In this document: piece by piece, positions 1,149 to 39,405 of the stretch
Layout of the letters: every line of letters starts with the position of its first letter
Position numbering within the stretch: position 1 is the stretch's first letter
Origin: an uncultured delta proteobacterium
GTDB lineage: Bacteria > Desulfobacterota > Binatia > JACPRU01
Assembly: GCA_963745025.1 (NCBI GenBank)
Contig: CAVUWD010000006.1
Location: forward strand, 96,001-160,000
Length of the DNA stretch: 64,000 bases
Reading direction: 5' to 3'
The notes under the pieces: model-generated
Databases searched by the model: none
The model's input: only the letters and a program-made list of their open reading frames with translations
Told to the model about the DNA's origin: nothing
Position numbers and translations under genes: made by a program

Positions 1149-2132
1149 TCACAGGAGCTTCGCGAGGACCGCCGCAACCGCCCAGCCGATCGCGCCGCAC
1201 ACCGGGAACGTGAGGATCCATGCGGTCACCACGTCGCCCACCACTCCCCAGCGCACCGCCGACAGCCGTCGGGAGGATCCGACCCCCATGATCGCCGTAT
1301 TGATGGTGTGGGTCGTGCTGAGCGGAATGCCGAGTCGCGAGGCGAGCTCGATCGCGGTGCCCGCCGCGGTCTCGGCCGCGAAGCCGTGATACGGCTCGAG
1401 TCGGGCGATCTTCATTCCCATCGTGCGGATGATCCGCCAGCCGCCGACCGAGGTGCCGATCCCCATGGTGATCGAACAGAGAAGCACGACGCCGAAGCTC
1501 GGGTGGAACTCCGGCAGCACGCCGCCGAGCACGAGCGCGAGCGTGAACACGCCGATGAACTTCTGCCCGTCGTTGCTGCCATGACTGAAGGCCATGAACA
1601 CCGCCGAAAAGACCTGCAGCCGGCCAAAGACCGTACGGACGCGCCCCGGGCTCCAGCCCCGGCAGATCCATACGATCGACCAGATGAGGAAGACGCCGGC
1701 GAAGAAGCCGAGAAAGGTCGAGAAGAGAAGCCCGATCAGTACCTTTCGCCAACCCTCCCAGAGAAGCACCGACGGCCCGGCGGCGGCGAGCCCCGCGCCG
1801 GAGAGGCCTGCCACGAGCGCGTGGCTCGAGCTCGTCGGCAAGCCGTAGTACCAGGTGAGGACGTCCCAGACGACGATCGCCACCATCGCCGCCGCCACCG
1901 TCACCAAGCTGATCGCGTGAGCGTCGACGATTCCGTTGGCGATCGTTGCCGCAACCGCCGTTCCGGAGAAGGCGCCGACTGCGTTGAACACGGTGGCCAT
2001 GACGATGGCCACGCGTGGCGAGAGCACGCGCGTCGACACGACCGTGGCGATCGCATTGGACGCGTCGTGCCAGCCGTTGACGAATTCGGCGGCCAGCACG
2101 AGCAGCAACACGAAGAAGAGTAGCGCCGTCAC
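1149..2132 (-). CDS. pit: inorganic phosphate transporter, PiT family
   Basis: NGWHDASNAIAT and HGSNDGQK signatures, PLSTTH, hydrophobic. Confidence 0.95.
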   Translation of the reverse strand: MTALLFFVLLLVLAAEFVNGWHDASNAIATVVSTRVLSPRVAIVMATVFNAVGAFSGTAVAATIANGIVDAHAISLVTVAAAMVAIVVWDVLTWYYGLPTSSSHALVAGLSGAGLAAAGPSVLLWEGWRKVLIGLLFSTFLGFFAGVFLIWSIVWICRGWSPGRVRTVFGRLQVFSAVFMAFSHGSNDGQKFIGVFTLALVLGGVLPEFHPSFGVVLLCSITMGIGTSVGGWRIIRTMGMKIARLEPYHGFAAETAAGTAIELASRLGIPLSTTHTINTAIMGVGSSRRLSAVRWGVVGDVVTAWILTFPVCGAIGWAVAAVLAKLL

Positions 2133-2168
2133 CCCAACGTCCCGCCCGCTCCCCTCGACGTCCGCGCC

Positions 2169-2798
2169 TCAGGCGTACTCGAGCGCCACTCCCTCGAGCA
2201 CGTTGGCGACATCCTCGCACCGATCCACCGCGTCCTCGAGGTAGTCGAAGATTTCCTTCCACTTCATCACGTGAATCGCGTCACGCTCCTCGTTGAAGAG
2301 CCGCGCGACGGCCTTGCGGATCAGCTGATCACCCTCGTTCTCGTAGCGGTTGATCTCCATGCAGGTGCGGATCATGCCCTCGCGGTCTTTGAGGTTGCGA
2401 AGCTGCGTCATCGCCTTATGGACCTCCGTCACGGCGTTGATCAGCACCGAGACGAGGTTCAGCACGTCGGGATCGGGCTCGCGCAGCTGGTAGAGCCAGA
2501 CACGCTCGGCTGTGGAATCGATGAGGTCCAGAATGTCGTCGAGGCGGCTGATCAGCTCGTGGATGTCGCCGCGGTCGATCGGGGTGAGAAACGTCTTGTG
2601 CAGCATCTCGATCGCGCGGTGGGTGATCTGGTCTCCTTCGTGCTCGATCGACTTAATCCGCTCGGCATCTTTCTCCGCTTCCTTCGGGTCGCTCAGCATG
2701 TCGCGAAGCAGGCGTGCCGCCTCCAGAGTCTTGGCCGCGTGGCGCTCGAAGTAGTTGAAGAACTCGGTTCCGCCGCGCGGGAAAAGGCTGGCCAGCAT
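2169..2798 (-). CDS. DUF47 / PhoU-like Pit accessory protein
   Basis: EHEGD...TFLTPIDRGDI...ENEGD...LEDAVDRCEDVA; directly upstream of pit; AGGAG RBS. Confidence 0.93.
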   Translation of the reverse strand: MLASLFPRGGTEFFNYFERHAAKTLEAARLLRDMLSDPKEAEKDAERIKSIEHEGDQITHRAIEMLHKTFLTPIDRGDIHELISRLDDILDLIDSTAERVWLYQLREPDPDVLNLVSVLINAVTEVHKAMTQLRNLKDREGMIRTCMEINRYENEGDQLIRKAVARLFNEERDAIHVMKWKEIFDYLEDAVDRCEDVANVLEGVALEYA

Positions 2799-2897
2799 GG
2801 ACCTCTCCTGTTTCGAAAGATCATGGAAACAGACGATGGCGCTCCCATCCGGAGGGAAGCATCCGGACGGGTCTCTACCATTCCCAGGCGGACGTCG

Positions 2898-3797
2898 CTA
2901 CTGCGGCTTCGTCGCCAGCCGATCGAAGACCTCGATCAGTGCTTGCGTCCCGCCGTCTCCCCAGCCAATGGCGGCGACGGCGGAAAAGAGCTGCTGCACG
3001 AGCGCAACACCAGGTAACGGCAAGCAAAAATCCTCAGCTGTCTCGAGGATCAGCCGCAGATCCTTTCTCGCCAGGCGTACGGGGAACCCCGGCGCAAAAT
3101 CGCGCTCGACGATCTTCGGACCGAGGTTCGTGAGCTGCCAGGAGGCCCCTGCCCCCGCCCCCACCGCCTCGATGACTTTGCGCAGATCGAGGCCCGCCTC
3201 TGCGCCGAGCCGGATCGCCTCGCAGGTGGCGAGAAGGTTACCGAGCACGGCGACCTGGTTCACGAGCTTGGCCGACTGGCCGCTGCCGACGGAGCCAACG
3301 TGGGTCACACGCTTGCCGAGCGCGTCGAAGAGCGGCCGACAACGCTCGAACACGGCCGCCTCGCCACCCACCATGATCGACAGCGTGGCTGCAATTGCGC
3401 CGGATTCCCCTCCGGAAACCGGTGCGTCGAGATAGTCCACGCCTCGTTCGCGCAGACGCCGTGCGAATTCCCGCGTGGCTCGCGGCGAGATCGTGCTCAT
3501 GTCGACCACCACGGAGCCCGCGTGGATGCCCGCCGCCGCGCCGTTCGCGCCGAACACGACCTCCTCGACGTCCGCCGTGTCGGACACCATGGTGACGACG
3601 ACGTCACTCAGGCCGGCGACCTCACGAGGGCTGCCCGCGGCCTGCCCTCCCGAAGCAACGAAGGCCTCGAGGCGGGCGGCGCTCCGGTTGTAGGCGACGA
3701 CCGGAAAACTCGCGCGCAGCAGGTTCTCGGCCATCGGGCGCCCCATGATGCCGAGCCCGATCCACCCGATGCGGACAAGGGGAGCACCACGTTCCAT
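2898..3797 (-). CDS. NAD(P)-dependent oxidoreductase, 3-hydroxyisobutyrate/tartronate semialdehyde reductase family
   Basis: GWIGLGIMG, DAPVSGG, KLVNQ motifs. Confidence 0.92.
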   Translation of the reverse strand: MERGAPLVRIGWIGLGIMGRPMAENLLRASFPVVAYNRSAARLEAFVASGGQAAGSPREVAGLSDVVVTMVSDTADVEEVVFGANGAAAGIHAGSVVVDMSTISPRATREFARRLRERGVDYLDAPVSGGESGAIAATLSIMVGGEAAVFERCRPLFDALGKRVTHVGSVGSGQSAKLVNQVAVLGNLLATCEAIRLGAEAGLDLRKVIEAVGAGAGASWQLTNLGPKIVERDFAPGFPVRLARKDLRLILETAEDFCLPLPGVALVQQLFSAVAAIGWGDGGTQALIEVFDRLATKPQ

Positions 3798-3832
3798 GTG
3801 CGTGGGTTCTATCGAAGCGCGCCGTCGAACTT

Positions 3833-3929
3833 AAGAGGCTACCGGCTGCAGGGCTACAGGCTACCGGCTACGCCCAAAGACTCCGCGAATCCTTTCCTGT
3901 AGCCCGAAACCCGTAGCCCGTAGCCTCTT
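3833..3929. repeat. heptamer (GGCTACC/GGCTACA) inverted-repeat element, copy 1
   Basis: Terminal IR AAGAGGCTAC...GTAGCCTCTT, tandem 7-mers on both arms, core AAAGACTCCGCGAATCCTTT. Confidence 0.8.
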
Positions 3930-3935
3930 GGACTT

Positions 3936-5336
3936 TCAGAACTTCGTAATCGCATCGACCTGCCAACGGACGTCGGTATTGGGATTGCGGCCGGGCACGT
4001 CGTCGACCGGCTTGTCGATCCAGGCGGTCGAGAGCAGCGAGAAATTCTTCATGACCACGACACCGGTCTGCAGGATGTGAGCCTTGGTATTGGTGCCCCC
4101 GTTGCGGCCGAAGTCGCTGTTGGTGAACGCCGAGACCACCGCGTCGGTCTCCAGGTATTCGTAGGCGTAGGTGAAGAAAAAGTCTCCAGGGTCCTTGTAG
4201 TTGCCGATCGTGATGCCGCCCTGGTAGCCCATATCGTTGTTGCTGGCTTCGGTATTCTCGACGAAGTCACCGAACACGCGCAGCGGGAACCTAAGGTCAA
4301 AAAGGCATATCGGGATCAGCACGTCCGTACCGACGTTCAGGTCGTTGAACGCGGTGTTGAACTTGGTGATCGTGATCGGTTTGCCGGGAATCGTCGCGCC
4401 GGTCACGGGGTCCACCGTCGGCGCCGTCGTACCGTTCTTGTTCGGCCCCGCCTTCGACGGGTCGACCGGCAGTCCGCCGACGACCTCGCCGTCCGACAGC
4501 GTCACGAAGTTGGTGATGTTGAGCGAGCTGTTGGTGTTGCGCGCCACCGCAATCGAGCTCGGGTTGTTATAGTGGTAGTCGGCCACGCCGACGGTCCAGA
4601 GCGCATCGCCGAGAGCCGCGGTCCCGAGGCCCTGGAAGCCGTAGATCGCCGCCTCGCCGGTGTTGCTGTTCTCCTGGAAGATCCACTGCCCGAGGTTCAG
4701 CGCCAGAGTCCGCAGGAACCCTTCCTTCTCGTCGATGACCTTCAGGCTCTCGTAGAAGCCCTCCGGCGTCAGGTCGGCGTCGAAGACCAGCTGATTCGGC
4801 GTCGGCGGCACGTACATCGGCTGGTCGAACTTGCCGCCCATCAACGTCACCCAGGGGCGCTCCAGGCCGATCGACTTGTACGGCGTGAGCTTGATGTAGG
4901 CGTTGGCGATGTTGATGTTCTTGAAGGTGAACTCGTCGGTGAAGGTCTGATTGTTGGAGATCGGATCGTTGGCGTTGCCGCTCACGAGCTTGAATCCGGT
5001 CTCGAGCTCGTCGCTCGGCTTGATCTTCGCGCCGATGCGCAGCCGGAAGCGCTGGCGGATGCGGTCCGGGGTGCCGTCTTGGAAGAAGGACTCGTTGCGG
5101 AGCCGCACGTCGCCGAAGAGCGTCACCATCTTCACCCACTCGGGCAGCGCCGGGATCGATGAGACGGCTTTCTCGGTCGCCGCCTCCTGCTTCTCCCTCG
5201 CGGCCTTCGCCTCGGCGGCTTCGCTCGAATCGATGACCCCCTTTTCCTGCAAGATTTCCTCGAGCGTCCGCGCGTGCGCCACCCCGGTGGAGAGCACCGC
5301 CGCTGCCAGCCACGCACCGAGCCAACCTCGCTTCAT
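3936..5336 (-). CDS. putative outer-membrane porin (Porin_5-like), copy 1
   Basis: Signal peptide, LEEILQEKGVI, GDVRLRNE...RQRFRLRIG, C-terminal Phe; GAGGAGG RBS before ATG 5336. Confidence 0.85.
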   Translation of the reverse strand: MKRGWLGAWLAAAVLSTGVAHARTLEEILQEKGVIDSSEAAEAKAAREKQEAATEKAVSSIPALPEWVKMVTLFGDVRLRNESFFQDGTPDRIRQRFRLRIGAKIKPSDELETGFKLVSGNANDPISNNQTFTDEFTFKNINIANAYIKLTPYKSIGLERPWVTLMGGKFDQPMYVPPTPNQLVFDADLTPEGFYESLKVIDEKEGFLRTLALNLGQWIFQENSNTGEAAIYGFQGLGTAALGDALWTVGVADYHYNNPSSIAVARNTNSSLNITNFVTLSDGEVVGGLPVDPSKAGPNKNGTTAPTVDPVTGATIPGKPITITKFNTAFNDLNVGTDVLIPICLFDLRFPLRVFGDFVENTEASNNDMGYQGGITIGNYKDPGDFFFTYAYEYLETDAVVSAFTNSDFGRNGGTNTKAHILQTGVVVMKNFSLLSTAWIDKPVDDVPGRNPNTDVRWQVDAITKF

Positions 5337-5471
5337 GGTCGCCTCCTCTCTCTCCACCAGTCGCGCACTGAGCTGGCGAACACCCCGATTGACGCCGTCC
5401 CGCCGCTACACGATGCTACCGGACCGAGTGACTCGGCCGTCCGCGAACGGCCACGCTATTCCCTAGCGGAT

Positions 5472-7181
5472 ATGACGAGCCAAGCCAAGACCGTTGACGA
5501 GCCGTCGGGGTCGTCGTCGCGTTGGCGGCAGCGAATGGCCGCGAGCGGCGTGCCCGCCTGGATGCTCGTCGTGGTCGTCGTCCTTCCGCTCATGCTGTTC
5601 ACCATCGACCTCGGCACACCGTCACTCTGGGATCCCGACGAGGGGCTTCCCGCGGAGGTGGCCCGCGAGATGCTGCTCACTCGCCAGTGGCTGACTCCAC
5701 AGCTGAACTTCGTCCCGTATCCCGAGAAGCCGCCCGCCTATTTCTGGCTGCTCGCTGCGGCGATGCGCGTCTTCGGAGAGCGAAACGAGGCGGCCATCCG
5801 GCTTCCTTCGGTGATCTTGGCCCTCGGCGGCGTCTGGCTGCTCCTCGCCTGGGGATGGCGGCACGTGAGACCGATCGCCGGCACCTTCGGGGCGCTCGTG
5901 CTGTCGACGAGCGCCGGATACGTCGCGGTTGCCCGCCTCGGCATCGAGGATGGCGTGGCGGGGTTTCTTCTCTCGATCGCGCTCTTGGCGATGAGCGAGC
6001 CCCTACTGTCGCGCCGCGCGGCGTTTCCGTGGATTTTCTACGCGGCGCTCGCGGGCGCGACACTGAGCCTCGGACCTGCAGCGCTGGTCCTGCCTCTGCT
6101 GGTCGCGCTTCCGTTCGTCGCGTTGCTCCGCGAGCCGGGCCGCCTTCTCGACCTTCGTCCGCTGCGCGGGCTCGGGATCGTTGCCGCCCTGACGTTTCCG
6201 GTGCTTTTCGCTGCCGCGGCGCGAGATCCCGACTACGTGCGCGGCCTCTTCGGCGAGCACAGCTTGATCCGCTTCCTCGATCCGAACTTCGATGAGGAGC
6301 ACTCCTACTCGCTCGGCTTTTTCACGGCGATCACCCCGGTGCTGATGCTGCCGTGGGGAATCTTTCTTCCCTGGACGCTTCGCGATTCGCTGCGTACCGG
6401 AGGCGAGCGATCGCCCGAGGCACGGCTGTTCCTCCTCGTCTGGCTGACCGCCGACGTGGCGTTCTTCTGGCTCACCGCCGCAAACTTCGTGGCCTACGTC
6501 GTGCTCACGCTCGCTCCGCTGGCGCTGCTCACCGGCCGCTCCTTGTCGCGGTTTCTACGCCGCCCGCGCGCCCAGAGCTGGTACCTAGATCCCATGCTTC
6601 TTGCTCCCGGGATCCTGTTCCTGGTGGTCCTGGCGTCCCCCTTCTTCACCAGGCACTGGCTGCAGAACGAGTATCCGATGTACGCGGACAACATCCTCTT
6701 CGGCTTCCTGCTGGTGCCGTTCGCAGCGGCCGGCATCGGCGCGGTCGTGCGAAGGAACCGCTTCGGCGCGCTCGCCGCGGTGAGCGCCTGTGGTGTGGTC
6801 ACGCTCGCGAGCCTCTATCACTTCGGAGCCGAGACGGTGACGGCGTACAACAGCATGGAGCTGCCGGCGAACTTGATCGCCGTTCGGCTGCCCTCTAACG
6901 CGGTGCTGCTCAGCTACGGCACCGCGGGCCATACCCTCGCGTTCTACTCGGGGCGACCGATCCGCCAGCTCTTGAACGTGCACGAGGCCCGCCCCCTGCT
7001 GAACGCCGACGCGCCGATCGCGTTGCTCACCAAGGAGCGCTTCTTCCCCGAGGTGCGTGCCGAGCTCGACCGCGTGCTCTACGTCTGGTGGGAAGGCGAT
7101 TCGAAGAAGGTGCTGCTCGCCAACATTCCGCCGCCGCCCGGCTCGGACCGTCGCATCCTCTTGCCCGCGCCGCCGACGTAA
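5472..7181 (+). CDS. ArnT/PMT-like (GT-C) membrane glycosyltransferase
   Basis: WDPDEG..AEVAREM, YPEKPPAYFWL, AIRLPS, multiple TM helices. Confidence 0.85.
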   Translation: MTSQAKTVDEPSGSSSRWRQRMAASGVPAWMLVVVVVLPLMLFTIDLGTPSLWDPDEGLPAEVAREMLLTRQWLTPQLNFVPYPEKPPAYFWLLAAAMRVFGERNEAAIRLPSVILALGGVWLLLAWGWRHVRPIAGTFGALVLSTSAGYVAVARLGIEDGVAGFLLSIALLAMSEPLLSRRAAFPWIFYAALAGATLSLGPAALVLPLLVALPFVALLREPGRLLDLRPLRGLGIVAALTFPVLFAAAARDPDYVRGLFGEHSLIRFLDPNFDEEHSYSLGFFTAITPVLMLPWGIFLPWTLRDSLRTGGERSPEARLFLLVWLTADVAFFWLTAANFVAYVVLTLAPLALLTGRSLSRFLRRPRAQSWYLDPMLLAPGILFLVVLASPFFTRHWLQNEYPMYADNILFGFLLVPFAAAGIGAVVRRNRFGALAAVSACGVVTLASLYHFGAETVTAYNSMELPANLIAVRLPSNAVLLSYGTAGHTLAFYSGRPIRQLLNVHEARPLLNADAPIALLTKERFFPEVRAELDRVLYVWWEGDSKKVLLANIPPPPGSDRRILLPAPPT

Positions 7182-7238
7182 CCAGAACTTCATGCCTACG
7201 CGGTGCGCCTGAAACACGGGTTCGGCTACAGCGGCGGC

Positions 7239-7457
7239 ATGAGTCACGAGGTGCGGTGCCCCTTCTGCTCGGCGCGATTCGATCTCTTCGAGGCGGCCTG
7301 GTGCGAGCATGCCGACGAGGAGTCGTCGAAGGTCTGCCCACAGTGCCAGAGCTGCCTGTGCCGTCTACCCGACTACAAGGAGCCTCGCCTCTGGAAGCAG
7401 GCGCCGCTCGCTTTTCGCAGACGGGGCTTCCGTCGAATCTTCGTGCGCTACCTGTAG
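7239..7457 (+). CDS. small Cys-rich putative zinc-binding protein (72 aa)
   Basis: CPFC...WCEH...CPQCQSCLC, GC3-rich codons. Confidence 0.7.
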   Translation: MSHEVRCPFCSARFDLFEAAWCEHADEESSKVCPQCQSCLCRLPDYKEPRLWKQAPLAFRRRGFRRIFVRYL

Positions 7458-7718: not shown

Positions 7719-9500
7719 CTACGCAGCCGGAAACGTGACCCGGACGGTCGTGCCACGCCCGACCGTGCTCTCGATTGCCAGCGACCCGCCATGGGCCTGG
7801 ACGATGTGCTTGACGATCGCCAGGCCGAGGCCGGTACCGCCGAGCTCGCGCGAGCGCGCGCGGTCGACCCGGTAGAACCGCTCGGTCAACCGCGGGATAT
7901 CCTTCTCGGGAATGCCGACGCCATCGTCGCAGACCGCGAGCTCCACGAACGAGCGGCCGTTCTCGACGATGGGACGTGCCATGATGCGCACGCGACTGCC
8001 AGCGCCGCTGTACTTGATGGCGTTGTCGATCAGGTTGATCAGTACCTGTTCCAGGCGATCGCGGTCGGCGGCGAGCGCCGGCACGTCGTCGGAAATCTCC
8101 GCAAGGAGCGCAACGCCCCGCTCCTCGGCTTTCTGTCGCAGCATCTCGATCGGCGCCGCCACCGCTTCGGACACCGCCAGCGGACGGGGGCGGATCTCGG
8201 TCCGGCCGAGCTCGAGATCCGAGAGCACCAAGAGATCGTCGATCAGTCGCGCCAACCGCTCCGAATGCCGCTGGATGACGCCGACGAACTCCGACGCCCG
8301 CTCGGGATCGTTGAGCGCCCCGTGTTGCAGCGTCTCGGCGTAGCCGCGGATCGCCGTCAGCGGCGTGCGCAGCTCGTGGGAAACGTTGGCCACGAAGTCG
8401 GCACGCATGGCCTCGAAATGGCGCATCCGCGTGAGGTCGTGGAGCACCAGGATCGCGCCGTGAACCACCCCATTCTCCCCATCCTCGTCGCCCACGATGC
8501 CGACCGCGCTGGCCGACAGCACGCGGTTTCGCTCTCGTCCGGGAAACGTCAGCTCGCGCTGCACAGCCGCGCCCGACGAGCGCAGCGCCTCCTCCACGAG
8601 GGGAATCAGCTCGGGGTTTCGACTGACGAGAGACAGCTTCGCCCCGACGAGCGCACCACCCGCGGCGAGCTCCAGCTGCTCGACCGCGGCGCGGTTGCAG
8701 ACCACGATCCGGCCCTCGTCGTCGAGCATGACCACGCCGTCGACCATGCTCCGCAAGATCGCGTCGAGCTTCGCGCGCTCCGCTTCGGTGCCGGCGAGCT
8801 GCTCGCGCATTTCGCGCGCGAGCGAGACGAGGTGCCGCTCCAGGGCACCGAGCTCGTCCTGCTCCGGCGGGCTCTGCGCGTCGCCCGCACCGGATAGGAT
8901 CTCTCGGGAGAGCGTCTCGATCCGGCGGATGCGGCCGGTGACCCGCCGCGAGAACCATGTCGCCGCCATTCCTCCGAAGAGGATCACGGTGAAGAGGCCG
9001 TAGGCGAGCGTGCGCCGTACCAGGCTCTTCGTCTCCTCGAGCTCGCGCAGCGGCAGCGCGAGCCGCACGAAGCGACGCTCGGAGCCGCGGCGGTCGGCGA
9101 GCGCCACGTAGAGCATGTCGAAGCCGAGCGTGTGACTGAACCGGGTGGCGACACCCGTTCCCCGCTCGCGTGCGTCGATCACTTCCGGTCGGCCGGCATG
9201 GTTCTCGAGCGATTCGGACGATTCCTCCGACTCGCCGATGACCTGCCCGTCCTCGGCGATGACGGTCAAGCGTCCACCGAGCTCCCGCGCGTGACGCGCG
9301 CAGAGCCGGTCGAGCGCGGCTCCGTGGACATCCCACGGCAGCCCGTCGGCCGCCAGCCGTACCTCTCGCTCGAGGCGGCCGGTCAGTGATTGAACGTAGA
9401 GCCGTTGGAAGGCGCGCGACCAGTAGAGCGAGGCGACCAGGACGACCGCCAGCACGACCGCGAACACCGGCGCGAGGAGCTGGATCGAGAGCCGGCGCAC
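7719..9500 (-). CDS. phoR: phosphate regulon sensor histidine kinase
   Basis: ENHAGRPEV periplasmic motif, HAMP, PAS, FVANVSHELRTPL, ERFYRVDRARSRELGGTGLGLAIVKH. Confidence 0.95.
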   Translation of the reverse strand: MRRLSIQLLAPVFAVVLAVVLVASLYWSRAFQRLYVQSLTGRLEREVRLAADGLPWDVHGAALDRLCARHARELGGRLTVIAEDGQVIGESEESSESLENHAGRPEVIDARERGTGVATRFSHTLGFDMLYVALADRRGSERRFVRLALPLRELEETKSLVRRTLAYGLFTVILFGGMAATWFSRRVTGRIRRIETLSREILSGAGDAQSPPEQDELGALERHLVSLAREMREQLAGTEAERAKLDAILRSMVDGVVMLDDEGRIVVCNRAAVEQLELAAGGALVGAKLSLVSRNPELIPLVEEALRSSGAAVQRELTFPGRERNRVLSASAVGIVGDEDGENGVVHGAILVLHDLTRMRHFEAMRADFVANVSHELRTPLTAIRGYAETLQHGALNDPERASEFVGVIQRHSERLARLIDDLLVLSDLELGRTEIRPRPLAVSEAVAAPIEMLRQKAEERGVALLAEISDDVPALAADRDRLEQVLINLIDNAIKYSGAGSRVRIMARPIVENGRSFVELAVCDDGVGIPEKDIPRLTERFYRVDRARSRELGGTGLGLAIVKHIVQAHGGSLAIESTVGRGTTVRVTFPAA

Positions 9501-15742: not shown

Positions 15743-15767
15743 GGGCTTGCGTCCCGCCCCCGCGGCG

Positions 15768-26510: not shown

Positions 26511-26544
26511 CCTCCCGTTCCCTGGAAGCGTGACAGGATGCGGC

Positions 26545-30152: not shown

Positions 30153-32329
<2,177 letters not shown>

Positions 32330-32371
32330 TCCGCCGCGGCCTTGCTCCCGTCCCGAGGGCTCGAGCGTGCC

Positions 32372-32512: not shown

Positions 32513-32540
32513 TACGCCGCGCGTCTTGATGGTCGTCTCC

Positions 32541-32788: not shown

Positions 32789-32797
32789 AGTCATGGT

Positions 32798-33190
32798 TCA
32801 ACGAGTCGCGATCTTTCGCGTGGCCTCGCTGAGCCGCTTGCGGTGCGAACGGGCGAAGTTTCTTGGCGCCTTGCCGCAACCCTTACGGGCCACGTGACGC
32901 AGCCACTCGGGATCCATATCGACAGCGTCGCACACATTCAGGAACGAAAAAGGATACGCGCGATCGTCGGAAAAAATCCAACGAGCCGCTTCGCGCCACA
33001 ACTGTTCGGGGAAGTCTACCGACACGCATCGGAGGGCATCGTCGAGGAGTGCCACCATCAACTTCCTCGGCCCTTCGGCCGGCCACACGGGTGAATCCTC
33101 AACTTGACACGGAAGCCTTGCACCCTCGGTGGAAACCGGTCTTTGCGTCATGACCTCACATTGTCCCGATAGCCACAAGTTCGACATCAT
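32798..33190 (-). CDS. conserved hypothetical protein
   Basis: GGGAGGG RBS; RKLMVALLDDA...EAARWIFSDD..YPFSFLNVCDAVDMDP.WLR. Confidence 0.75.
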   Translation of the reverse strand: MMSNLWLSGQCEVMTQRPVSTEGARLPCQVEDSPVWPAEGPRKLMVALLDDALRCVSVDFPEQLWREAARWIFSDDRAYPFSFLNVCDAVDMDPEWLRHVARKGCGKAPRNFARSHRKRLSEATRKIATR

Positions 33191-33214
33191 GGGTCCCTCC
33201 CTTTCTTCGCTTCT

Positions 33215-33257
33215 ACGTTAACTGCGCGTGGTGAATCGGCAATGACGGCGGAGTGAA
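33215..33257 (-). promoter_or_regulatory. Pho box plus -10 for gene 32798-33190
   Basis: Minus strand TTCAC-N6-GTCAT-N6-TTCAC-N10-TAACGT. Confidence 0.72.
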
Positions 33258-33260
33258 GAC

Positions 33261-33524
33261 TTGAAGGGAAAACACGAAGCGGCCGAGCCCGTTCTCGAGT
33301 GCGCTCGCACGGTGCAGCACGAGCTCGGCGACTGGCACGACCGACAGGTTCTGCAGCAGCTCATGCCCGAGTCGCTCGCCCGGCCGGAGGTCCTAATCGG
33401 AGCGGTCGAAATCGTCCGAGTCGCGCTTGCAGAGCTCGAGCGCGAGCGATGCTCCTCCCCGGCCGCCGACCGCGACGCCCGATCTAGAACACGAATCCGC
33501 TCTCGTCTTTTCACCAAGGCATAA
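33261..33524 (+). pseudogene. internally deleted copy of the CHAD gene
   Basis: MKGKHEAA joined directly to EPVLE..R.VQ.ELG.WHD of 24970-25932. Confidence 0.85.
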
Positions 33525-33563: not shown

Positions 33564-33615
33564 TCGAGGCGTGAGGACGCGGCAAGCCGCTGATTCCTCG
33601 GGGAGGTCAGGGCGG

Positions 33616-34623
33616 ATGACGGAGCTCAGGGATCACGGCGCCTTCGAGCCATCACCCGGTGTCACGTCCGAGCCGATCGCCCCGCCCGCCGATGGCGGCG
33701 AACTCGCAGGCGAGGTTCGGAAGCTTCCCGCTGCGGCCGTGCTGGCGCGGACCGGCCCGCTCGTCGCGTTCTCGGCCGAGGCCGATGCGATCCCTCACTT
33801 GCTCTACGAGATTGGGCGACTTCGCGAGCTGACGTTCCGCGCGGTCGGCGAGGGGACGGGAAAGCGGATCGACCTCGACTGGTTCGATTCGCATTATCTT
33901 CACCTCGTGCTCTGGAACGCGGAGCGGAGCGAGGTAGTCGGGTCGTACCGTTGCGGCGCCACCGATGCGATCGTGCCACGCTTCGGGGTCGATGGCCTCT
34001 ACACCTCGACGCTTTTCGCGTACGAGGAGCCGCTCATCGCCCGGCTCGTTCCGGGGCTGGAGCTCGGCCGGTCCTTCGTGCGGCCGGAGTACCAGAGAAC
34101 GTACTCCGCGCTTTTCCTTCTCTGGCGGGGAATCGGAGAGTTCGTCGCGCGCAATCCTCGCTACAAGCTTCTCTTCGGGGCCGTCAGCGTCAGCAACGAA
34201 TTTCGCGCACATACCCAGCGGCGCATCGTCGAGTTCCTGCGCGAGGTGAGCTCGCTGCCGGCGCTGGCAAGGTTCGTGAAGTCACGTAGCCCGCTCGGGC
34301 CGAGCTTTGCGTCGTCCCGCCGGGCTCATTTCGAGCCGTCGCGTGATCTCGGTTTGCTCGAGAGAGAGGTCCGCGAGCTCGAGCGCGGGGAGCGAAGCCT
34401 GCCGGTTCTGCTGAAACAGTACCTCAAGCTCGGCGGCCGCGTGCTCGGCTTCGCCCGGGACCCGGACTTTCGCGACAGCCTCGACGCGCTAGTGCTCGTC
34501 GATCTCTCGATCGCACCGTTGGGCGCGCTCACCCGGTACATGGGCGAAGAAGGACTCCGCGCATTCCTCGAGTATCACCGTCCGAGCCACACGCGACGGG
34601 ACGAATGCTGGCCGTCGCGATGA
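33616..34623 (+). CDS. GNAT-family N-acyltransferase (OlsB/OlsF-like, Acetyltransf_5)
   Basis: EIGRLRELTFRAVGEGTG, DLDWFD, VVGSYR, LELGRSFVRPEYQ, LPVLLKQYLKLG. Confidence 0.85.
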   Translation: MTELRDHGAFEPSPGVTSEPIAPPADGGELAGEVRKLPAAAVLARTGPLVAFSAEADAIPHLLYEIGRLRELTFRAVGEGTGKRIDLDWFDSHYLHLVLWNAERSEVVGSYRCGATDAIVPRFGVDGLYTSTLFAYEEPLIARLVPGLELGRSFVRPEYQRTYSALFLLWRGIGEFVARNPRYKLLFGAVSVSNEFRAHTQRRIVEFLREVSSLPALARFVKSRSPLGPSFASSRRAHFEPSRDLGLLEREVRELERGERSLPVLLKQYLKLGGRVLGFARDPDFRDSLDALVLVDLSIAPLGALTRYMGEEGLRAFLEYHRPSHTRRDECWPSR

Positions 34624-35789
34624 GAGCAAAGGACGTTGCTCGGCGGCGAATCGCCGAAGCCGCCGATTCACTCGTGGAGCTCAGCCATCGGATCCACGCC
34701 AACCCGGAGGTCGGCTTCGAGGAGGTGCAGGCTTCCGCATGGCTCGCTCGGGAGCTCGAGCGAGGCGGATTCGACGTCGACCTCGGCGTCTTCGAGCTGC
34801 CAACCGCCCTGATCGCGCGTACCGGGCGCGGGGCGCTCGAGCTCGCGATTTGTGCCGAATACGATGCCCTTCCCGAGATCGGCCATGCCTGCGGCCACAA
34901 TCTGATCGCGGCCATCGCGCTCGGCGCTGGGCTCGGTCTTCGCGAGCTCGTCGACGACCTCGGCATCACGTTGACGATCATCGGCACGCCGGCCGAAGAG
35001 TTCGGCAACGGCAAGGCACTCCTACTCGAGCGCGGAGGCTTCGACGACGTCGATGCGGCTCTCATGGTTCATCCCGCACCGGTCGACGTCGCCGAGCCGC
35101 CGCTGCTCGCCTTCGCGCAGTTCGACGTCGAGTATTCGGGCGAGTCCGCCGATGCGTTCGGAGCGCCCGAGCTAGGCGTCGACGCCGCCGCGGCGTTGAC
35201 GATCGCGCAGGTCGCGATCGGGCTCCTGCGACCCCGCCTCCAAGCGACCGATCGGGTGCACGGCATCCTCACCCGCGCGGGCACCACGCCGGAACGGATC
35301 ACCGATCGGGCTCACGGCACCTACATGGTCCGAGCGAGGAACCTCGCGAACCTCGTCGTGCTGGAATCGTGCGTCCGGCGCTGCTTCGAAGCCGGCGCGC
35401 TCGCCGCGGGTGCACGTCTGCGCCTCTGCGAGCCCCACGAACCGTATGCCGAGATGCGGCACGATCACGAGCTCTCCGAGCTCTATCGACGAAACGCCGA
35501 AGCGCTCGGCCGCCAGTTTCCGGACCTCGGAGATCTACTCGAACGGGGAACCGGATCGACGGACATGGGCAACGTGTCGCAGGTCTTGCCTGCGATCCAT
35601 CCGGCGATCGGCATCGATTCGCTCCCGGCCGCGAATCATCAGCCCGAATTCACTGCGCACTGCGTGAGCCCGGCCGCCGATCGCGCCATTCTCGATGGAG
35701 CCGCGGCCCTAGCCGGTACGGTGATCGACATCGGGGGCGACGAAGCGCTGCGTGCTCGTCTTCGCGCTCGGGGGAAACGTCGACCATGA
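34620..35789 (+). CDS. M20 family amidohydrolase (PM20D2/AbgB-like)
   Basis: AEYDALP..GHACGHN, GTPAEE, GSTDMGNVS; ATGA overlap. Confidence 0.9.
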   Translation: MRAKDVARRRIAEAADSLVELSHRIHANPEVGFEEVQASAWLARELERGGFDVDLGVFELPTALIARTGRGALELAICAEYDALPEIGHACGHNLIAAIALGAGLGLRELVDDLGITLTIIGTPAEEFGNGKALLLERGGFDDVDAALMVHPAPVDVAEPPLLAFAQFDVEYSGESADAFGAPELGVDAAAALTIAQVAIGLLRPRLQATDRVHGILTRAGTTPERITDRAHGTYMVRARNLANLVVLESCVRRCFEAGALAAGARLRLCEPHEPYAEMRHDHELSELYRRNAEALGRQFPDLGDLLERGTGSTDMGNVSQVLPAIHPAIGIDSLPAANHQPEFTAHCVSPAADRAILDGAAALAGTVIDIGGDEALRARLRARGKRRP

Positions 35790-35910
35790 CGGGGCGTGAA
35801 GCGGTGGGCGAGACGGTGGCCGTGGCCGAGCCCAGGCTGTTCTTCTTCCGCAAGTTTCTCCGCGAAGGCCGTCGCGTCGCGAGCTTCGCGCCCTCGAGCC
35901 GTAGCCTCCC
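35786..35910 (+). pseudogene. 5' remnant of PmtA/OlsG-like lipid N-methyltransferase, in frame with downstream acyltransferase
   Basis: LFFFRKFLREGRRVASFAPSSRSL; the SAM-binding motif is absent; ATGA overlap with M20 stop. Confidence 0.6.
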
Positions 35911-36022
35911 ACGCGCCGCGCCCCGGGGCGGCCGCCGCGAAGCGCCGGGGTTCGATGGTCGTGCGCAGCCCGAGGATCGGCCGCCGACACCGAGCGCGAG
36001 CGAGCACGCGCACGTCGCCATC

Positions 36023-36877
36023 ATGAAGATTCGCGCCACCGTACGCCTTCTCCTCTTGGCCGTGCTGGTCACGGCCGGCAATGTCTTCGCGAGGATTCGC
36101 CTCGCTCGCTCGGGCGCCCCGCACGCTCGCGCGCGCGAGATCTTCCACCACCTCTCGGGCGCGCTCGTGCGTCTCCTCGGCCTCCGCGTCGAGCGCAGCG
36201 GCAGGCTCCCACGCGGCCTCTGCGTCGTCGTCGCCAATCACCGCTCGTACGTCGACATCCCGCTGATGATGTCACAGACGCCCTCGACGTTTCTCGCCAA
36301 GTCGGAGCTCGCGCGCTGGCCGCTCTTCGGCGCCGCCGCTCGCCTCTGCGGCACCGTGTTCGTCGAACGCGACGACCGCGGGTCGCGCAAACGGGCGCTC
36401 GAGCACCTCGGCGGCCTGCTCGACGGCGGCGAGCGCATCATCGTCTTTCCCGAAGGAACTACGTCGACCGGCCCGGGCTGCCTCCCGTTTCGCCCCGGGG
36501 TGTTTCGTCTGGCCGCCGCGAAGGGCATCGCGGTCGTGCCGGTCGCCATCGCCTATCACGACGCACGCGATGCGTGGGTCGACGATGCGAGCTTCGTCGA
36601 CCATTTTCTCGAGCGTTTCGACGAGCGCCGGATGCGCGTCGTCGTCGCCATCGGGCCGCCGCTCTTCGCAGACGACGCCGAAGCCTTGAAGCAGGCCGCC
36701 GAGCAATGGATCTCGGAGCGCCTAATGATCCACGACCAGGTGATGGGCCTCCGCCGAGCCCGAGCCGAGCGTCTGCGCCTCGCTCGCGTCCGCGAGTCTG
36801 CCGTAGGCACACCCCCTCTGCTGCAATTTTCTTCCCCGACAGGCAGAATGGTGCCGGATTCGATTCCGCCACCATGA
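36023..36877 (+). CDS. lysophospholipid acyltransferase (PlsC/OlsA-like)
   Basis: NHRSYVD (HX4D), FLAKSE, FVER, FPEGT. Confidence 0.9.
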   Translation: MKIRATVRLLLLAVLVTAGNVFARIRLARSGAPHARAREIFHHLSGALVRLLGLRVERSGRLPRGLCVVVANHRSYVDIPLMMSQTPSTFLAKSELARWPLFGAAARLCGTVFVERDDRGSRKRALEHLGGLLDGGERIIVFPEGTTSTGPGCLPFRPGVFRLAAAKGIAVVPVAIAYHDARDAWVDDASFVDHFLERFDERRMRVVVAIGPPLFADDAEALKQAAEQWISERLMIHDQVMGLRRARAERLRLARVRESAVGTPPLLQFSSPTGRMVPDSIPPP

Positions 36878-38430
36878 AGATCGCCGCGATCGACATCGGC
36901 TCGAACTCGATTCACATGGTGATCGCCCGTGTCGGGCGCACGCGCTTCGAGATCGTCGATCGCGCGAAGGAGATGGTCGGGCTCGGGCGCTCGACGCTCA
37001 GCACCGGGCGGCTCTCGCCGGCCGCAATCGACGTCGGCTTCCGGACGCTCGAGACCTTCAAGCGCCTCGCCGAGAAGCACGGCGCCGATCCGATCCTCGC
37101 CGTGGCGACGAGCGCGGTGCGAGAGGCCAAGAACGGCGGCGAGTTCGCGCTCCGCGTCTGGGACCGCCTCGGGCTCCACGTCGACGTGATCACCGGCGCC
37201 GAGGAAGCGCGGCTGATCTTCCTCGCCGCGGCGCACGCGGTCGACTTTCGCCGCCAGCGGCCGATCGTCATCGACATCGGCGGCGGTAGCGTCGAGATCA
37301 TCGCGGGCCAAGGCGCGCAGATCCGTTGGATCGAGAGCCTGAAGCTCGGCGTGGTGCGCTTGACCGAGCGCTTTCTGAGCGCCGATCCTCCCGAACCACG
37401 GGAGATCGCCGCGCTTCGCGCTCATATCGACCGCATGCTGGCTCCCGTGTTTCGGCGCGCACGAAGGTTCCGGCCGTCGCTCCTCGTCGGCACCTCCGGC
37501 ACGCTTCTGAATCTCACCGCCATGGCGGCCTCGCTCGAGACCGGCAAGGCGCCGGCGCGCATCCACAACCGCACGCTTCGCCTCCGGCGGCTCGCCGCCG
37601 TCCGCGAGCAGGTTCTCGCGTGCGACGCCGACGAGCGCTCCGAGCTCGCCGGCCTCGACCGCCGCCGCGTCGATTTGATCCCCGCCGGCGCGGTGCTGGC
37701 GGAGAGGTTGATCGAGGGCTTCGGTCTGGACGAGCTCCGTGCGTGCGACTGGGCGCTGCGCGAAGGCATTCTTCTCGACTTCATCGCCAGCCATGCCGAC
37801 GAGGTGGCCGCCACCGACCGGGTTCCGGACCTCCGGCGCCGGAGCGTTCTTCAGCTCGCCGAGCGCCTCCGCTCCGATGCGGCGCATGGACGACACGTCG
37901 CCGCTCTCGCGCTCAAGCTCTTCGACTCGATCCGCAGCCTGCACCGCCTCGGGCGCCGCGAACGCGAGCTCCTCGAGTTCGCCGCGTTACTCCACGACGT
38001 CGGCCTCTACGTGAGTCACAGCAAGCACCACCGCCATTCGCAGTATCTGATCACCCACGGGGAGCTTCGCGGCTTCGCGCCCGAGGAGATTGCCGTAGTC
38101 GCGGCGATCGCCCGATTCCACAAGGGGGCGCCGCCGAAGCCGTCGCATGAAGAGCTGACCGAGCTCTCGCCCGAGGCCCGGCGGCTGGTGATCCAGCTGA
38201 CGGCGATACTCCGTGTCGCCGACAGCTTCGACCGCAGTCACCACGGCGTCGTTCGCGACCTGAGCGTCGCGCGAAGGAACGGCCGGCTGCGCATCCGACT
38301 CGATACGGCCGGTCGCGACGCGGCCCTCGAGCTCTGGGGAGCCGAGCGCAAGTCCGATCTCTGGGAGAAGTGCTTCGGCGTCGACCTCGAGTTCGAGTTG
38401 GACCGCGAGCGAAAGGAGTCGCTGCGCTGA
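36874..38430 (+). CDS. ppx: exopolyphosphatase / pppGpp phosphohydrolase
   Basis: AAIDIGSNSIHM, ATSAVREA, DIGGGSVE, ALREG, C-terminal HD domain. Confidence 0.95.
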   Translation: MKIAAIDIGSNSIHMVIARVGRTRFEIVDRAKEMVGLGRSTLSTGRLSPAAIDVGFRTLETFKRLAEKHGADPILAVATSAVREAKNGGEFALRVWDRLGLHVDVITGAEEARLIFLAAAHAVDFRRQRPIVIDIGGGSVEIIAGQGAQIRWIESLKLGVVRLTERFLSADPPEPREIAALRAHIDRMLAPVFRRARRFRPSLLVGTSGTLLNLTAMAASLETGKAPARIHNRTLRLRRLAAVREQVLACDADERSELAGLDRRRVDLIPAGAVLAERLIEGFGLDELRACDWALREGILLDFIASHADEVAATDRVPDLRRRSVLQLAERLRSDAAHGRHVAALALKLFDSIRSLHRLGRRERELLEFAALLHDVGLYVSHSKHHRHSQYLITHGELRGFAPEEIAVVAAIARFHKGAPPKPSHEELTELSPEARRLVIQLTAILRVADSFDRSHHGVVRDLSVARRNGRLRIRLDTAGRDAALELWGAERKSDLWEKCFGVDLEFELDRERKESLR

Positions 38431-38699
38431 GCCGGCGGCGCGCCGAAGCTCGAGCCCACACTGCCCGCAAGAAGCTGCGGCGAGGTCAGCGCGGCGCGCG
38501 GCCGCGGCAAATCGGCCCACGCGAAGCGCGAGCGGCTCGAGTTCTCGCCGGCCGCGGCAGGCGTCGGCAGGGCACGGCCGCGCCGAGCGGCGCACCGCGT
38601 CGAGATCGAGCCCGTCTCGACCGGGAGCTCGCACCTCGCCCGGACGCAGCTTGACCGCATCCACCCGCGCTCGCCTGGCCGGAGCGACTGCGACGGCCC

Positions 38700-38835
38700 G
38701 GGAAGTGTCGAGATAGATGGTCTCGAGATCGCGAACGCCGACCGGGCGGACATGGTACCGCCCCAAGCGCTTGCGTCGCACGAGCGAGTCGAAAATCGCT
38801 CGACTCGGCGCTTCGAGCTTGGCCTCGACTTCCAT
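38700..38835 (-). pseudogene. 5' remnant of CYTH-domain protein
   Basis: MEVEAKL (ExExK)...ETIYLDT, similarity then lost. Confidence 0.6.
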
Positions 38836-38904
38836 CCTCGCAGTTGGCCCGGCAGAAGACTTCGTGGCTCAATACGGGCTAGAAGGGGCAGAAGGATCTC
38901 TACC

Positions 38905-39405
38905 ATGGAACTTTATCTCGTTCGCCATGCAATCGCCGAGGAATCGTCGTCGACGGGGCGAGACGCCGATCGCGCTCTCACCAGAGACGGCGAGGCGAAG
39001 ATGCGGCGTATCGCGGAGGGCCTGCGCGCGATCGAGGTGCGGCTCGATCTCATCCTCACCAGCCCGTACCGCCGCGCGGCCGAGACGGCAGACGTCCTCG
39101 CAACGGTGCTCGGCGGCGTGGAACGGCAGGTGCTCGAGGAGCTGGCAGCCGCCGCGAGCATGGCCGGGCTCCTCGCCGCGCTTCGGCCGTACCGGCAGGT
39201 CGAGGCGCTCGCCCTGGTTGGTCATCAACCGGACCTCGGGCATCTCGCCTCGCAGATCATGACCGGCGCGCCCGATCTCTGCCCGCTGCCGTTCAAGAAA
39301 GGCTCCGTGGCCTGCCTCGAGATCGCTTCCCAGCGCGGCAACCTGCGCGGAGAGCTCGCCTGGTTCATGACCCCCAAGCAGCTCCGCGCGCTGAGCGAAA
39401 CCTGA
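38905..39405 (+). CDS. sixA: phosphohistidine phosphatase SixA
   Basis: LYLVRHAIAE, DRALT..G, TSPYRRAAETA, LVGHQPDL. Confidence 0.9.
   Translation: MELYLVRHAIAEESSSTGRDADRALTRDGEAKMRRIAEGLRAIEVRLDLILTSPYRRAAETADVLATVLGGVERQVLEELAAAASMAGLLAALRPYRQVEALALVGHQPDLGHLASQIMTGAPDLCPLPFKKGSVACLEIASQRGNLRGELAWFMTPKQLRALSET

Follow-up and report, generated by a model that had tools for sequence, protein, structure and literature searches.

The closest described systems to the locus reported here are the classical Pho regulon of Proteobacteria and the proteins of polyphosphate (polyP) granules. Under phosphate limitation, phosphorus-free aminolipids take the place of phospholipids; E. coli PPX binds long polyP chains through its C-terminal part; and RMND1, a mitochondrial protein and the product of a human disease gene, is a relative of bacterial DUF155. 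Apart from PPK, CHAD proteins and AlgP, few proteins of the granule have, to our knowledge, been described. In excerpts of one report, PHO boxes are defined as direct repeats of 11-nucleotide units whose core, for instance GTTCACC, differs between species (PMC4415409). In excerpts of other reports, CHAD domains are described as specific polyP-binding modules and CHAD proteins as 'phosins' (PMC6537752, PMC6771595), and AlgP, a histone H1-like protein of Pseudomonas aeruginosa, is placed on polyP granules and needed for their even spacing (PMC9239181). Here we describe a locus from an uncultured delta proteobacterium (assembly GCA_963745025.1, contig CAVUWD010000006.1, positions 96,001 to 160,000), in which genes of phosphate uptake, phosphate sensing and polyP metabolism are interleaved with small genes, among them two members of DUF3562, a Pfam family with no assigned function. 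The window, to which all positions refer unless stated otherwise, is the whole stretch of 64,000 nucleotides that was analysed.

A sequence-only reading of this DNA had claimed a phosphate/polyP island of about 38 kb and had taken its small genes for accessory parts of a polyP granule system. By Pfam and NCBIfam identities the island is real, and it spans 1.1-40.8 kb of the window, a block of about 40 kb that reaches slightly beyond the first-reported span, with the right edge moved to about 40.8 kb. Taken as a whole, the earlier observation is partly confirmed and its interpretation partly supported. We consider it likely that the block is a lineage-conserved supercluster of Pho-regulon and polyP genes that includes polyP helper genes induced on phosphate starvation.

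Gene content and conservation of the island

Genes were called by codon bias, since the G+C content of the window is about 65%, and were named by Pfam and NCBIfam. The supercluster holds essentially all of the genome's recognisable genes for five phosphate-related tasks. These would be phosphate uptake (pit/PhoU_div, pstSCAB, porin), phosphate sensing (phoR, phoB, phoU), the synthesis, binding and breakdown of polyP (ppk1, CHAD, ppx), the trimming of phosphorelays (SixA and a lone receiver) and a phosphorus-sparing remodelling of the envelope (an OlsB/OlsA-like aminolipid pair and an ArnT-like glycosyltransferase). The genes are as follows.

1149-2132, minus strand: pit, PHO4 family (PF01384, 294.5 bits)
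2169-2798, minus strand: PhoU_div/DUF47 partner of pit (PF01865, 103.5 bits)
3936-5357, minus strand: Porin_5 copy A (PF16930), intact
5472-7457, plus strand: ArnT-like PMT_2 glycosyltransferase, then a Cys-rich open reading frame (PF13231; NF009784 below its cut-off)
7719-9500, minus strand: phoR (Pfam domains)
9508-10251, minus strand: phoB (Pfam domains)
10248-10943, minus strand: phoU (Pfam domains)
10960-16752, minus strand: pstB, pstA, pstC and pstS (Pfam domains)
16840-18232, minus strand: Porin_5 copy B, beside pstS (the ancestral site); two overlapping open reading frames, each matching Porin_5
18501-19004, plus strand: lone receiver (PF00072 only; best NCBIfam match the receiver part of PhoB)
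22669-24825, plus strand: ppk1, here ppk1A (PF13089, PF02503, PF17941, PF13090)
24970-25932, plus strand: CHAD (PF05235, 113 bits; cut-off 25.6)
33571-36877, plus strand: OlsF-C/GlsB-like N-acyltransferase, M20 amidohydrolase and OlsA-like O-acyltransferase (PF13444, PF01546, PF01553)
36874-38430, plus strand: ppx (PF02541 and PF21447)
38905-39405, plus strand: SixA (PF00300; TIGR00249, 110.8 bits; cut-off 74.5)
39471-40762, minus strand: Nudix and HAD genes (PF00293, PF00702), beyond the first-reported span

The claims of pit, pst and phoR/B/U, and those of ppx, CHAD and sixA, were borne out by these matches (Pfam and NCBIfam; TIGR00249 for SixA), as was that of a lone receiver (PF00072). All four PPK1 domains lie above their cut-offs in the single reading frame of ppk1A, and ppx at 36874-38430 carries the catalytic domains (PF02541) plus domain III.

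The concentration of these genes was examined by tblastn, using the island's own proteins as queries against the genome of 5.65 Mb (92.65% complete). All genome matches of pit, pst, phoRBU, ppk1, CHAD and sixA fall inside the island; the sole further ppx-like gene outside it lies at about 899979-900305 of G000:C16. Only 1.4% of this genome lies within 10 kb of a pho/polyP marker, and since the matches all sit here the island is real and far from chance.

Conservation was compared among 25 relatives, in which ppk1 is 91% identical in a genome of the same genus (G301) and 70-81% identical in four genomes of the same family. The core order is kept in three related genomes (G301, G303 and G306) and also in L170/L171, metagenome contigs of a closer relative whose ppk1 and ppx are 97-98% identical. 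In G301 it reads HAD-Nudix-SixA-ppx-OlsA-M20-OlsB-CHAD-ppk1-DUF3562a-DUF155-receiver-porin, followed by pstSCAB-phoU-phoB-phoR-Cys-rich gene-PMT_2-HIBADH (3-hydroxyisobutyrate dehydrogenase-like). The stretch phoR-phoB-phoU-pstBACS has the same order in G301, G303 and G306, and the right end HAD-Nudix-SixA-ppx (36874-40762) in these three and in L170. The core is also present in G306 and G303, where the island position lacks DUF3562, DUF155 and the receiver; the island of G303 is additionally without the lipid genes. Gene identities, conserved order and concentration in one place were all observed directly.

The window was also aligned to G301 at nucleotide level, marking the segments without a counterpart there. 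These are porin A, 20294-21622 (the Ppx-domain gene and an open reading frame of 44 amino acids), 21943-22616 (the basic protein) and the 7.3 kb of 25924-33273, which hold DUF3562b, pyruvate kinase, a lipoprotein, a second ppk1, a multi-copy open reading frame and a short CHAD copy. In L170/L171, CHAD adjoins ppx without lipid genes or the 7.3-kb segment, and only a basic protein of 66% identity lies between ppk1 and DUF155. Given that these contigs differ despite their 97-98% identical ppk1 and ppx, the accessory content turns over fast, and from the comparison of G301 and L170/L171 the island has a core that stays the same and, on either side of ppk1-CHAD, a slot whose content changes fast.

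Accessory genes in the variable slots

These two slots carry a flexible accessory set, namely two DUF3562 proteins, a Lys/Arg/Ala-rich protein of 146 amino acids and a Ppx C-terminal domain; a putative DUF155 membrane protein with a CorA/Mrs2-like predicted fold adjoins the set.

19243-20289, plus strand: DUF155/RMND1 (PF02582, 95.9 bits, 98.2 in the genome scan; cut-off 27)
20606-21238, minus strand: stand-alone Ppx domain III/HD-like open reading frame (PF21447, PF01966; without PF02541)
21693-21941, minus strand: DUF3562 copy a (PF12085, 31.9 bits; cut-off 26.3)
22085-22585, minus strand: basic coiled-coil open reading frame, isoelectric point 11.3 (146-amino-acid form 22085-22525), divergent from ppk1
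26259-26510, plus strand: DUF3562 copy b, downstream of CHAD (PF12085, 28.6 bits; cut-off 26.3)

The two DUF3562-like proteins of the sequence-only reading are both members of PF12085, above the gathering cut-off of 26.3 bits also in the genome scan (31.7 and 28.4 bits). They are the genome's only two copies, and both lie in the island; DUF3562a is 64% identical to the copy that G301 has in the same position. A further six of the 300 other genomes of the phylum sample contain the family. A profile search returned 1,999 clusters at E≤0.001, of which the top 150 are, with one exception, 65-133 residues long. The AlphaFold2 model is a three-helix bundle (pLDDT 76). In the literature searched, neither DUF3562 nor PF12085 is mentioned (supplementary files, including granule-proteome tables, lay outside the search).

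For the analysis of neighbourhoods, a degenerate DNA pattern from the conserved helix of DUF3562 was searched in species-representative genomes. It found 47 stretches, 46 of them true by hidden Markov model. Thirty-nine loci were used, and PF12085 matched 51 places in those 39 genomes. The eight dropped loci comprise three in genomes already listed, three that are contigs of the phylum sample (G216, G133, G100), one in a same-genus genome and one false hit. About 10 kb on either side of 50 DUF3562 places, together with four phylum loci, gave 54 distinct genes outside the genus. Markers of pho/polyP function were a tblastn set fixed beforehand, plus CYTH-CHAD recognised by neighbour clustering and Pfam. 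A marker lies within 10 kb in 30 of the 54 loci, against a base rate of 1.4% taken from the window's genome, and the positive loci represent about five lineages, kin rather than 30 independent events. Within 5 kb the count is 26 of 54 and within 1 kb 15 of 54; for these last 15 genes the nearest marker is CYTH-CHAD in seven, phoU in six and phoB in two.

The gene orders differ between the groups. In six unclassified proteobacterial metagenome-assembled genomes, pstCAB-phoU is followed by DUF3562 on the opposite strand and ppk1 (then ppx, CHAD and sixA). DUF3562 stands directly after CYTH-CHAD in nine Burkholderiales-type loci, immediately ahead of phoB in a metagenome-assembled genome of Nitrospirota (L106), and a few kb from pst or phoBR in five genomes of the window's own phylum. 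The predicted complex of a Herminiimonas-type CYTH-CHAD protein with the adjoining DUF3562 scored 0.01 where the mark was 0.32, and counts neither way.

A second context of DUF3562 was seen in Nitrospirota, Brocadiales and the window's own phylum, with an HMA_2-domain gene in 17 loci, metK in 13, a zinc-ribbon protein of 98 amino acids in seven and MgtE in four. Examples are L099, L100, L115, L117, L120, L123, L124, L128 and L130, among others.

The RMD1 gene of the earlier reading belongs to DUF155/RMND1, with PF02582 above its cut-off. Homologues point to a likely start at 19519, giving 256 amino acids with a C-terminal membrane helix. DUF155 occurs in eight of the 300 other genomes of the phylum sample, and in three of these eight it lies within 10 kb of markers (sixA-CHAD/phoBR/pstSCA, ppx-sixA and pstS, respectively). 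Its AlphaFold2 model (pLDDT 83.7) is matched best over its full length by CorA/Mrs2 channels, six entries having Z scores of 11.0, 9.8, 9.3, 8.7, 8.5 and 8.1, which lie only slightly above those of unrelated helical proteins. The top match is 8zah_A (Z 11.0, 168 residues aligned, root mean square deviation 4.1). Foldseek gave nothing at E≤0.001, and listed a TBP-like half-domain and Mrs2 at E 0.002-0.012. As read from the sequence, DUF155 has one hydrophobic C-terminal helix and no GMN, and does not qualify as a CorA/Mrs2 channel; the model suggests a resemblance in fold only. A literature search that paired RMND1 with CorA gave nothing relevant, and the papers examined for DUF155 contained at most words of the DUF1559 type.

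The claimed stand-alone HD domain of Ppx proved to be a real and recurrent form. Its gene starts with GTG at 21238, homology extends to 21313, and the product has an Arg-rich tail and is 61% identical to residues 317-507 of the island ppx. It carries PF21447 and PF01966 only, and without the catalytic PF02541 domains of Ppx/GppA it is not expected to be an exopolyphosphatase. At E≤1e-10, 589 homologues of 129-412 amino acids were found, many with 200-250 amino acids and domain III only, and some of the stand-alone forms lie on contigs of 27-417 kb. The closest ones are 82% and 67-71% identical and have similar starts and Arg-rich tails. A decayed remnant of ppx was considered and rejected, as stand-alone homologues are common and conserved and have a DUF3562 partner in G307 and L169.

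The very basic coiled-coil protein was likewise confirmed, with an isoelectric point of 11.3 and conserved homologues. These form eight clusters of 135-146 amino acids and 59-91% identity, with an invariant KARKKAKRKAQ stretch in common. In all three outside contexts seen, the gene adjoins ppk1 or the DUF3562/Ppx-domain genes: it is divergent from ppk1 in L170/L171, it stands together with DUF3562 and the Ppx domain in G307, and in L169 the order is identical to that of the window.

The DUF3562, basic-protein, Ppx-domain and DUF155 genes are real genes, which vary between close relatives and recur beside pho/polyP genes in distant lineages. The neighbourhood check that had been suggested for the small genes, co-occurrence with ppk1, ppx or CHAD, turned out mostly favourable. 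It speaks for DUF3562 (30/54) and DUF155 (3/8), as well as for the Ppx-domain and basic proteins, which travel with DUF3562 or ppk1, but not for the pyruvate kinase and the micro-genes described below. By linkage, the proposed status of polyP/Pho accessories is thus supported for these four kinds of protein and is not supported for the pyruvate kinase, the micro-genes and a supposed CYTH remnant.

Candidate PHO boxes

The motif used for candidate PHO boxes consists of xT[AC]AC units, that is (G/T)T(A/C)AC, with an 11-nucleotide period. Two-unit matches number 151 genome-wide (0.027 per kb), and at this density about one is expected in the island. Nine were found between 16.8 and 33.5 kb, at seven sites, with a motif that was picked by eye from four promoters later counted. 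Our own gene call places seven of them between genes, another at the 3' end of porin B and the ninth within the short CHAD copy. The sites precede pstS, the receiver, DUF155, the Ppx-domain gene, ppk1 and the lipid genes, and one precedes DUF3562b on the opposite strand.

16787-16853, minus strand: candidate PHO-box array upstream of pstS, the genome's only three-unit array
18447: candidate PHO box of the receiver
19175: candidate PHO box of DUF155
21453: candidate PHO box of the Ppx-domain gene
22648: candidate PHO box of ppk1
33511: candidate PHO box of the lipid genes

Candidate boxes recur in G301 ahead of pstS, the receiver (53 bp upstream; receiver 79% identical) and the lipid genes (60 bp upstream), and in G306 ahead of pstS and the Cys-rich gene. 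The GTAAC repeats upstream of pstS have two units in G301 and three in G306. The 11-nucleotide repeat design fits the definition of PHO boxes in the excerpted report (PMC4415409). Canonical boxes precede ppk1 or pst in three of 16 proteobacterial DUF3562 loci scanned. The repeats ahead of the island's genes suggest that its units may be switched on by PhoB via the candidate boxes.

Probable damaged duplicates, and cargo

Some of the seeming richness of the locus turns out to be due to duplicates that are probably damaged, and to ordinary cargo.

30153-32260, plus strand: second ppk1, here ppk1B, in reading frames 3, 1, 2, 3 and 2 in turn
33261-33524, plus strand: internally deleted CHAD copy
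26530-28464, plus strand: pyruvate kinase, long form of 644 amino acids (NF011314/PRK14725, 784.4 bits; cut-off 642; residues 9-621)

Two ppk1 genes had been claimed, and both loci are present, but the second is disrupted by four frame changes in this assembly. By tblastn ppk1B has zero nonsense codons and its gene length is kept, with 42-54% identity to ppk1A across the aligned pieces; its domains are all there, spread over the five successive frame segments, so that no single frame gives a PPK1. Close to the breaks or right at them, public contigs have single-nucleotide insertions or deletions (indels), located at 30303, 31649/31650 and 31765. The gene has no counterpart in G301, G303, G306 and L170.

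The same holds for the two claimed porins: both belong to Porin_5, but the second is split by one frameshift in this assembly. Porin B is 85-91% identical to porin A by self-comparison and changes frame near 17666 (tblastn, 17660-17670). The base at 17666 is absent from a contig of run X3 but, as in the window, present in those of run X1. The site of porin A is empty in G301, where the HIBADH-like gene is followed by the PMT_2 gene. Since public contigs differ by single-base indels at these places, the breaks in ppk1B and porin B may be either young pseudogenisation or assembly indels. In G301 and G306, the pst/pho genes (L027-L033) gave many tblastn pieces in differing frames; this suggests that the two assemblies are indel-rich and therefore calls for caution on frameshifts in this genome group.

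The short CHAD copy begins with 23 nucleotides of the CHAD start and continues with the counterpart of CHAD nucleotides 689-885 at 90% identity; the encoded piece of 73 residues is 79% identical to CHAD residues 231-303. Its internal deletion of 665 nucleotides cannot have arisen by indel error. Like ppk1B and porin B, this copy is probably a damaged duplicate.

The claimed CYTH remnant was not found: PF01928 had no match in the window at E≤1, and eight CYTH-CHAD queries matched only the CHAD domain there. In the rest of the genome, the ppx-like gene on G000:C16 adjoins a weak CYTH-like stretch of 13 bits.

The atypical pyruvate kinase that had been proposed as a polyP accessory belongs to the known family NF011314/PRK14725. 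It is the sole pyruvate kinase match in the genome (G000), and its only full-length counterpart among the 25 relatives, in G204 (57%), is not near polyP genes. It is ordinary housekeeping cargo. The predicted lipoprotein behind it (28774-29235, plus strand, 153 amino acids) has two paralogues elsewhere in the genome (51% and 48%), and in the 0.9 kb or so behind it there is no convincing coding signal. An open reading frame of 130 amino acids (32798-33190, minus strand) has at least eight paralogues (31-40%) on eight other contigs and no Pfam family; a look-alike adjoins the DUF155 gene of G204 (L145). A resemblance of the 56-amino-acid open reading frame at 32342-32512 to the N-terminus of Kef-type antiporters was considered and dropped, as the frame has neither a Pfam match nor a paralogue in the genome.

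For the two claimed micro membrane proteins, the hydrophobic open reading frames at 20321-20455 (44 amino acids) and 20452-20577 (41 amino acids), no homologue was found beyond strain-level contigs, and one public contig has 20458-20513 deleted.

Other genes of the island

7203-7457, plus strand: Cys-rich zinc-ribbon-like open reading frame, 84 (probably 72) amino acids
between PhoU_div and porin A: 3-hydroxyisobutyrate dehydrogenase-like (HIBADH-like) gene

The lipid genes have family-level matches in Pfam, while the NCBIfam models of ornithine and glycine lipids all match below their cut-offs, the best being OlsF with 222.7 bits (cut-off 620) and OlsA with 111.1 bits (cut-off 300). They are present in G301 and G306 and absent from G303 and L170.

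At the left end, pit and PhoU_div are kept in G303. G301 lacks both save for the last 59 codons of pit (window 1310-2881 compared with L030), and this low-affinity uptake pair is therefore dispensable in the genus. An inverted array of GGCTAC(G/A)GG-type repeats at 3798-3935, between porin A and the HIBADH-like gene, could fold as a long hairpin. PstA (539 amino acids) and PstC (755 amino acids; both in 11859-15742, minus strand) are long forms, in each of which a large N-terminal extension precedes the permease domain, and PstC has weak beta-propeller-like matches.

Two Cys-rich mini-proteins had been claimed. The one at 7203-7457 is conserved, but a second was not identified with confidence. 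The protein at 7203-7457 is kept downstream of PMT_2 in G301 (86%) and G306 (71%), and has six clusters among 5.8 billion proteins and no occurrence in the 300 other genomes of the phylum sample. As a polyP accessory it was dropped: it travels with the glycosyltransferase and phoR, inside this family only, and therefore has no polyP link beyond co-location. Beyond the island, an open reading frame of 190 amino acids (42802-43374, plus strand) matches only the middle of the N-terminal domain of carbamoyltransferase (profile positions 122-228 of 346) and may be a fragment.

Interpretation and alternative explanations

The data show linkage of the accessory genes to Pho/polyP genes, and a role at the granule is suggested by their composition, domain ancestry and neighbourhood. 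Most likely they are Pho-induced polyP helpers. The proteins would bind or regulate polyP during phosphate starvation: the polyanion might be bound by the basic and Ppx-domain proteins, DUF3562 could be a small three-helix adaptor or regulator, and DUF155 may handle counter-ions or signals at the membrane. In a bolder form, which we hold only tentatively and regard as rather unlikely in full, DUF3562 would be a widespread polyP component that acts here with the Ppx domain and the basic protein as a Pho-induced granule coat or regulator, and the CorA-like DUF155 would couple counter-ion handling to polyP storage.

Several results weigh against starvation-induced helper genes. Twenty-four of the 54 DUF3562 loci have no pho/polyP marker within 10 kb and adjoin metK, HMA_2, MgtE, a zinc-ribbon protein or a metallophosphoesterase instead; the positive loci are kin, as said; two further loci of one genus outside the 54 (L010, L011) are both negative and would bring the count to 30/56; and five of the eight DUF155 loci are marker-negative. 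The model of DUF3562 has no structural neighbour in the PDB by Foldseek at E≤0.001. The accessory genes are dispensable, G301 keeping only DUF3562a and L170/L171 only the basic protein, and none of the set is at this place in G303 and G306. As to regulation, PHO boxes of the E. coli type (TGTCA-N6-TGTCA, at most one mismatch) gave 0 matches in the window compared with 1.75 in shuffles, and the T[AC]AC motif was chosen by eye. Support for it from other Pho genes was sought and failed: nine upstream matches outside the island precede unrelated or family-less genes, including those of a peptidase M1, a helicase, an aldo-keto reductase and a DcaP porin. The scan of 16 proteobacterial loci gave 15 in which DUF3562 has no canonical PHO box ahead of it; in the sixteenth (L107) the single match within 400 bp upstream lies inside the preceding CYTH-CHAD gene.

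Variable slots of this kind could also be a recombination hotspot, in which the small genes and duplicates beside ppk1 are unrelated, hitch-hiking cargo. Slot contents do vary among genomes with 91-98% identical ppk1, and 25924-33273 holds a housekeeping pyruvate kinase, a paralogous lipoprotein, a member of a multi-copy family, a disrupted ppk1 and a deleted CHAD copy. However, the linkage of DUF3562 to pho/polyP genes recurs in about five lineages whose gene orders are quite unlike each other, the basic protein, DUF3562 and the Ppx domain are found as a trio in G307 and L169, away from this slot, and several of the genes are preceded by candidate PHO boxes; mere cargo is an improbable account. 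It is somewhat less doubtful, though still not what we expect, that DUF3562 modulates Pho signalling through PhoU, PhoR or PhoB and is not a protein of the polyP granule, in which case the other accessories may be a separate matter. The nearest marker within 1 kb is phoU in six and phoB in two of 15 genes, L106 has DUF3562 directly ahead of phoB, and in the phylum to which the window belongs DUF3562 is linked mostly to pst and phoBR. On the other hand CYTH-CHAD is nearest in seven of the 15, nine loci in all pair it with DUF3562, in the window copy b comes after CHAD and copy a is grouped with the Ppx-domain gene, and the pair in G307 has no pho gene within 17 kb on the visible side.

A different question is raised by the frame breaks, which could be assembly errors in an organism with two working ppk1 genes and two porins. 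The four breaks of ppk1B are all frame changes, with no nonsense codon and the length kept; public contigs show single-base indels close to or exactly at three of these breaks, and also in the porin, at 17666; and the related assemblies G301 and G306 are visibly indel-rich. However, the five breaks are confined to two genes while about 35 other island genes read through, contigs of run X1 match the window at 17666, the adjoining CHAD copy carries its deletion of 665 nucleotides, and ppk1B has no counterpart in G301, G303, G306 and L170. Assembly error is a serious possibility, if the lesser one, beside damage to real duplicates.

With the supercluster and its helper genes as the preferred explanation, DUF3562 can now be assigned to Pho/polyP biology, and as the family occurs in culturable Burkholderiales (Janthinobacterium, Herminiimonas), genetics is possible. 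A Ppx paralogue without catalytic domains and a lineage-specific basic protein beside ppk1 are candidates with comparative support, and bacterial DUF155, of the RMND1 family, is linked to phosphate/polyP genes and has a CorA/Mrs2-like predicted fold. The linkages of DUF3562 and DUF155 are the parts most worth experiment.

Comparison with known systems

With the classical Pho regulon (pstSCAB-phoU, phoBR, ppk-ppx) the island shares the gene families, a putative PhoB-type control logic and 11-nucleotide repeats as candidate operators, and adjoining pst-phoU-ppk1-ppx-CHAD-sixA blocks occur in proteobacterial metagenome-assembled genomes. It differs in fusing uptake, sensing, polyP turnover, SixA, Nudix and lipid remodelling within about 40 kb, in its interleaved small genes, and in the repeat core T[AC]AC, which is nearer to GTTCACC than to CTGTCAT. 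Like the families of OlsB/OlsA, OlsF and GlsB, it has N- and O-acyltransferases, here behind a candidate PHO box; unlike OlsB/OlsA, an M20 amidohydrolase sits between the two acyltransferase genes, and the equivalog scores lie below the cut-offs.

As with the CHAD phosins of polyP granules, a CHAD gene follows ppk1. In contrast to CYTH-CHAD proteins this CHAD has no CYTH, and DUF3562 follows CHAD here and CYTH-CHAD in the nine loci elsewhere; DUF3562 as a small neighbour of CHAD or CYTH-CHAD is a new point. The basic protein resembles AlgP in being small, very basic, Lys/Ala-rich and linked to polyP genes, a likeness of composition alone. An alignment of nine homologues has no KPAA repeats and there is no detectable sequence relation to AlgP; instead, the protein has an N-terminal coiled coil and one invariant KARKKAKRKAQ block, and is restricted to its lineage (eight clusters). 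The new proteins belong to neither the phosin nor the AlgP family.

The stand-alone Ppx-domain protein keeps the HD-like motifs of Ppx/GppA and is 61% identical to domain III of the island ppx, but lacks the PF02541 domains and has an Arg-rich tail. The model of DUF155 shares with CorA/Mrs2 an alpha/beta domain at the N-terminus, a long stalk of helices and a membrane helix at the C-terminus (VIA-align Z 11.0 to Campylobacter jejuni CorA, 9.8 to yeast Mrs2 and 8.7 to M. jannaschii CorA), but has one predicted membrane helix, not two, and neither the GMN motif nor a Pfam relation. The core of the island is thus an ordinary, if unusually complete, Pho/polyP supercluster, and its new content is the accessory set.

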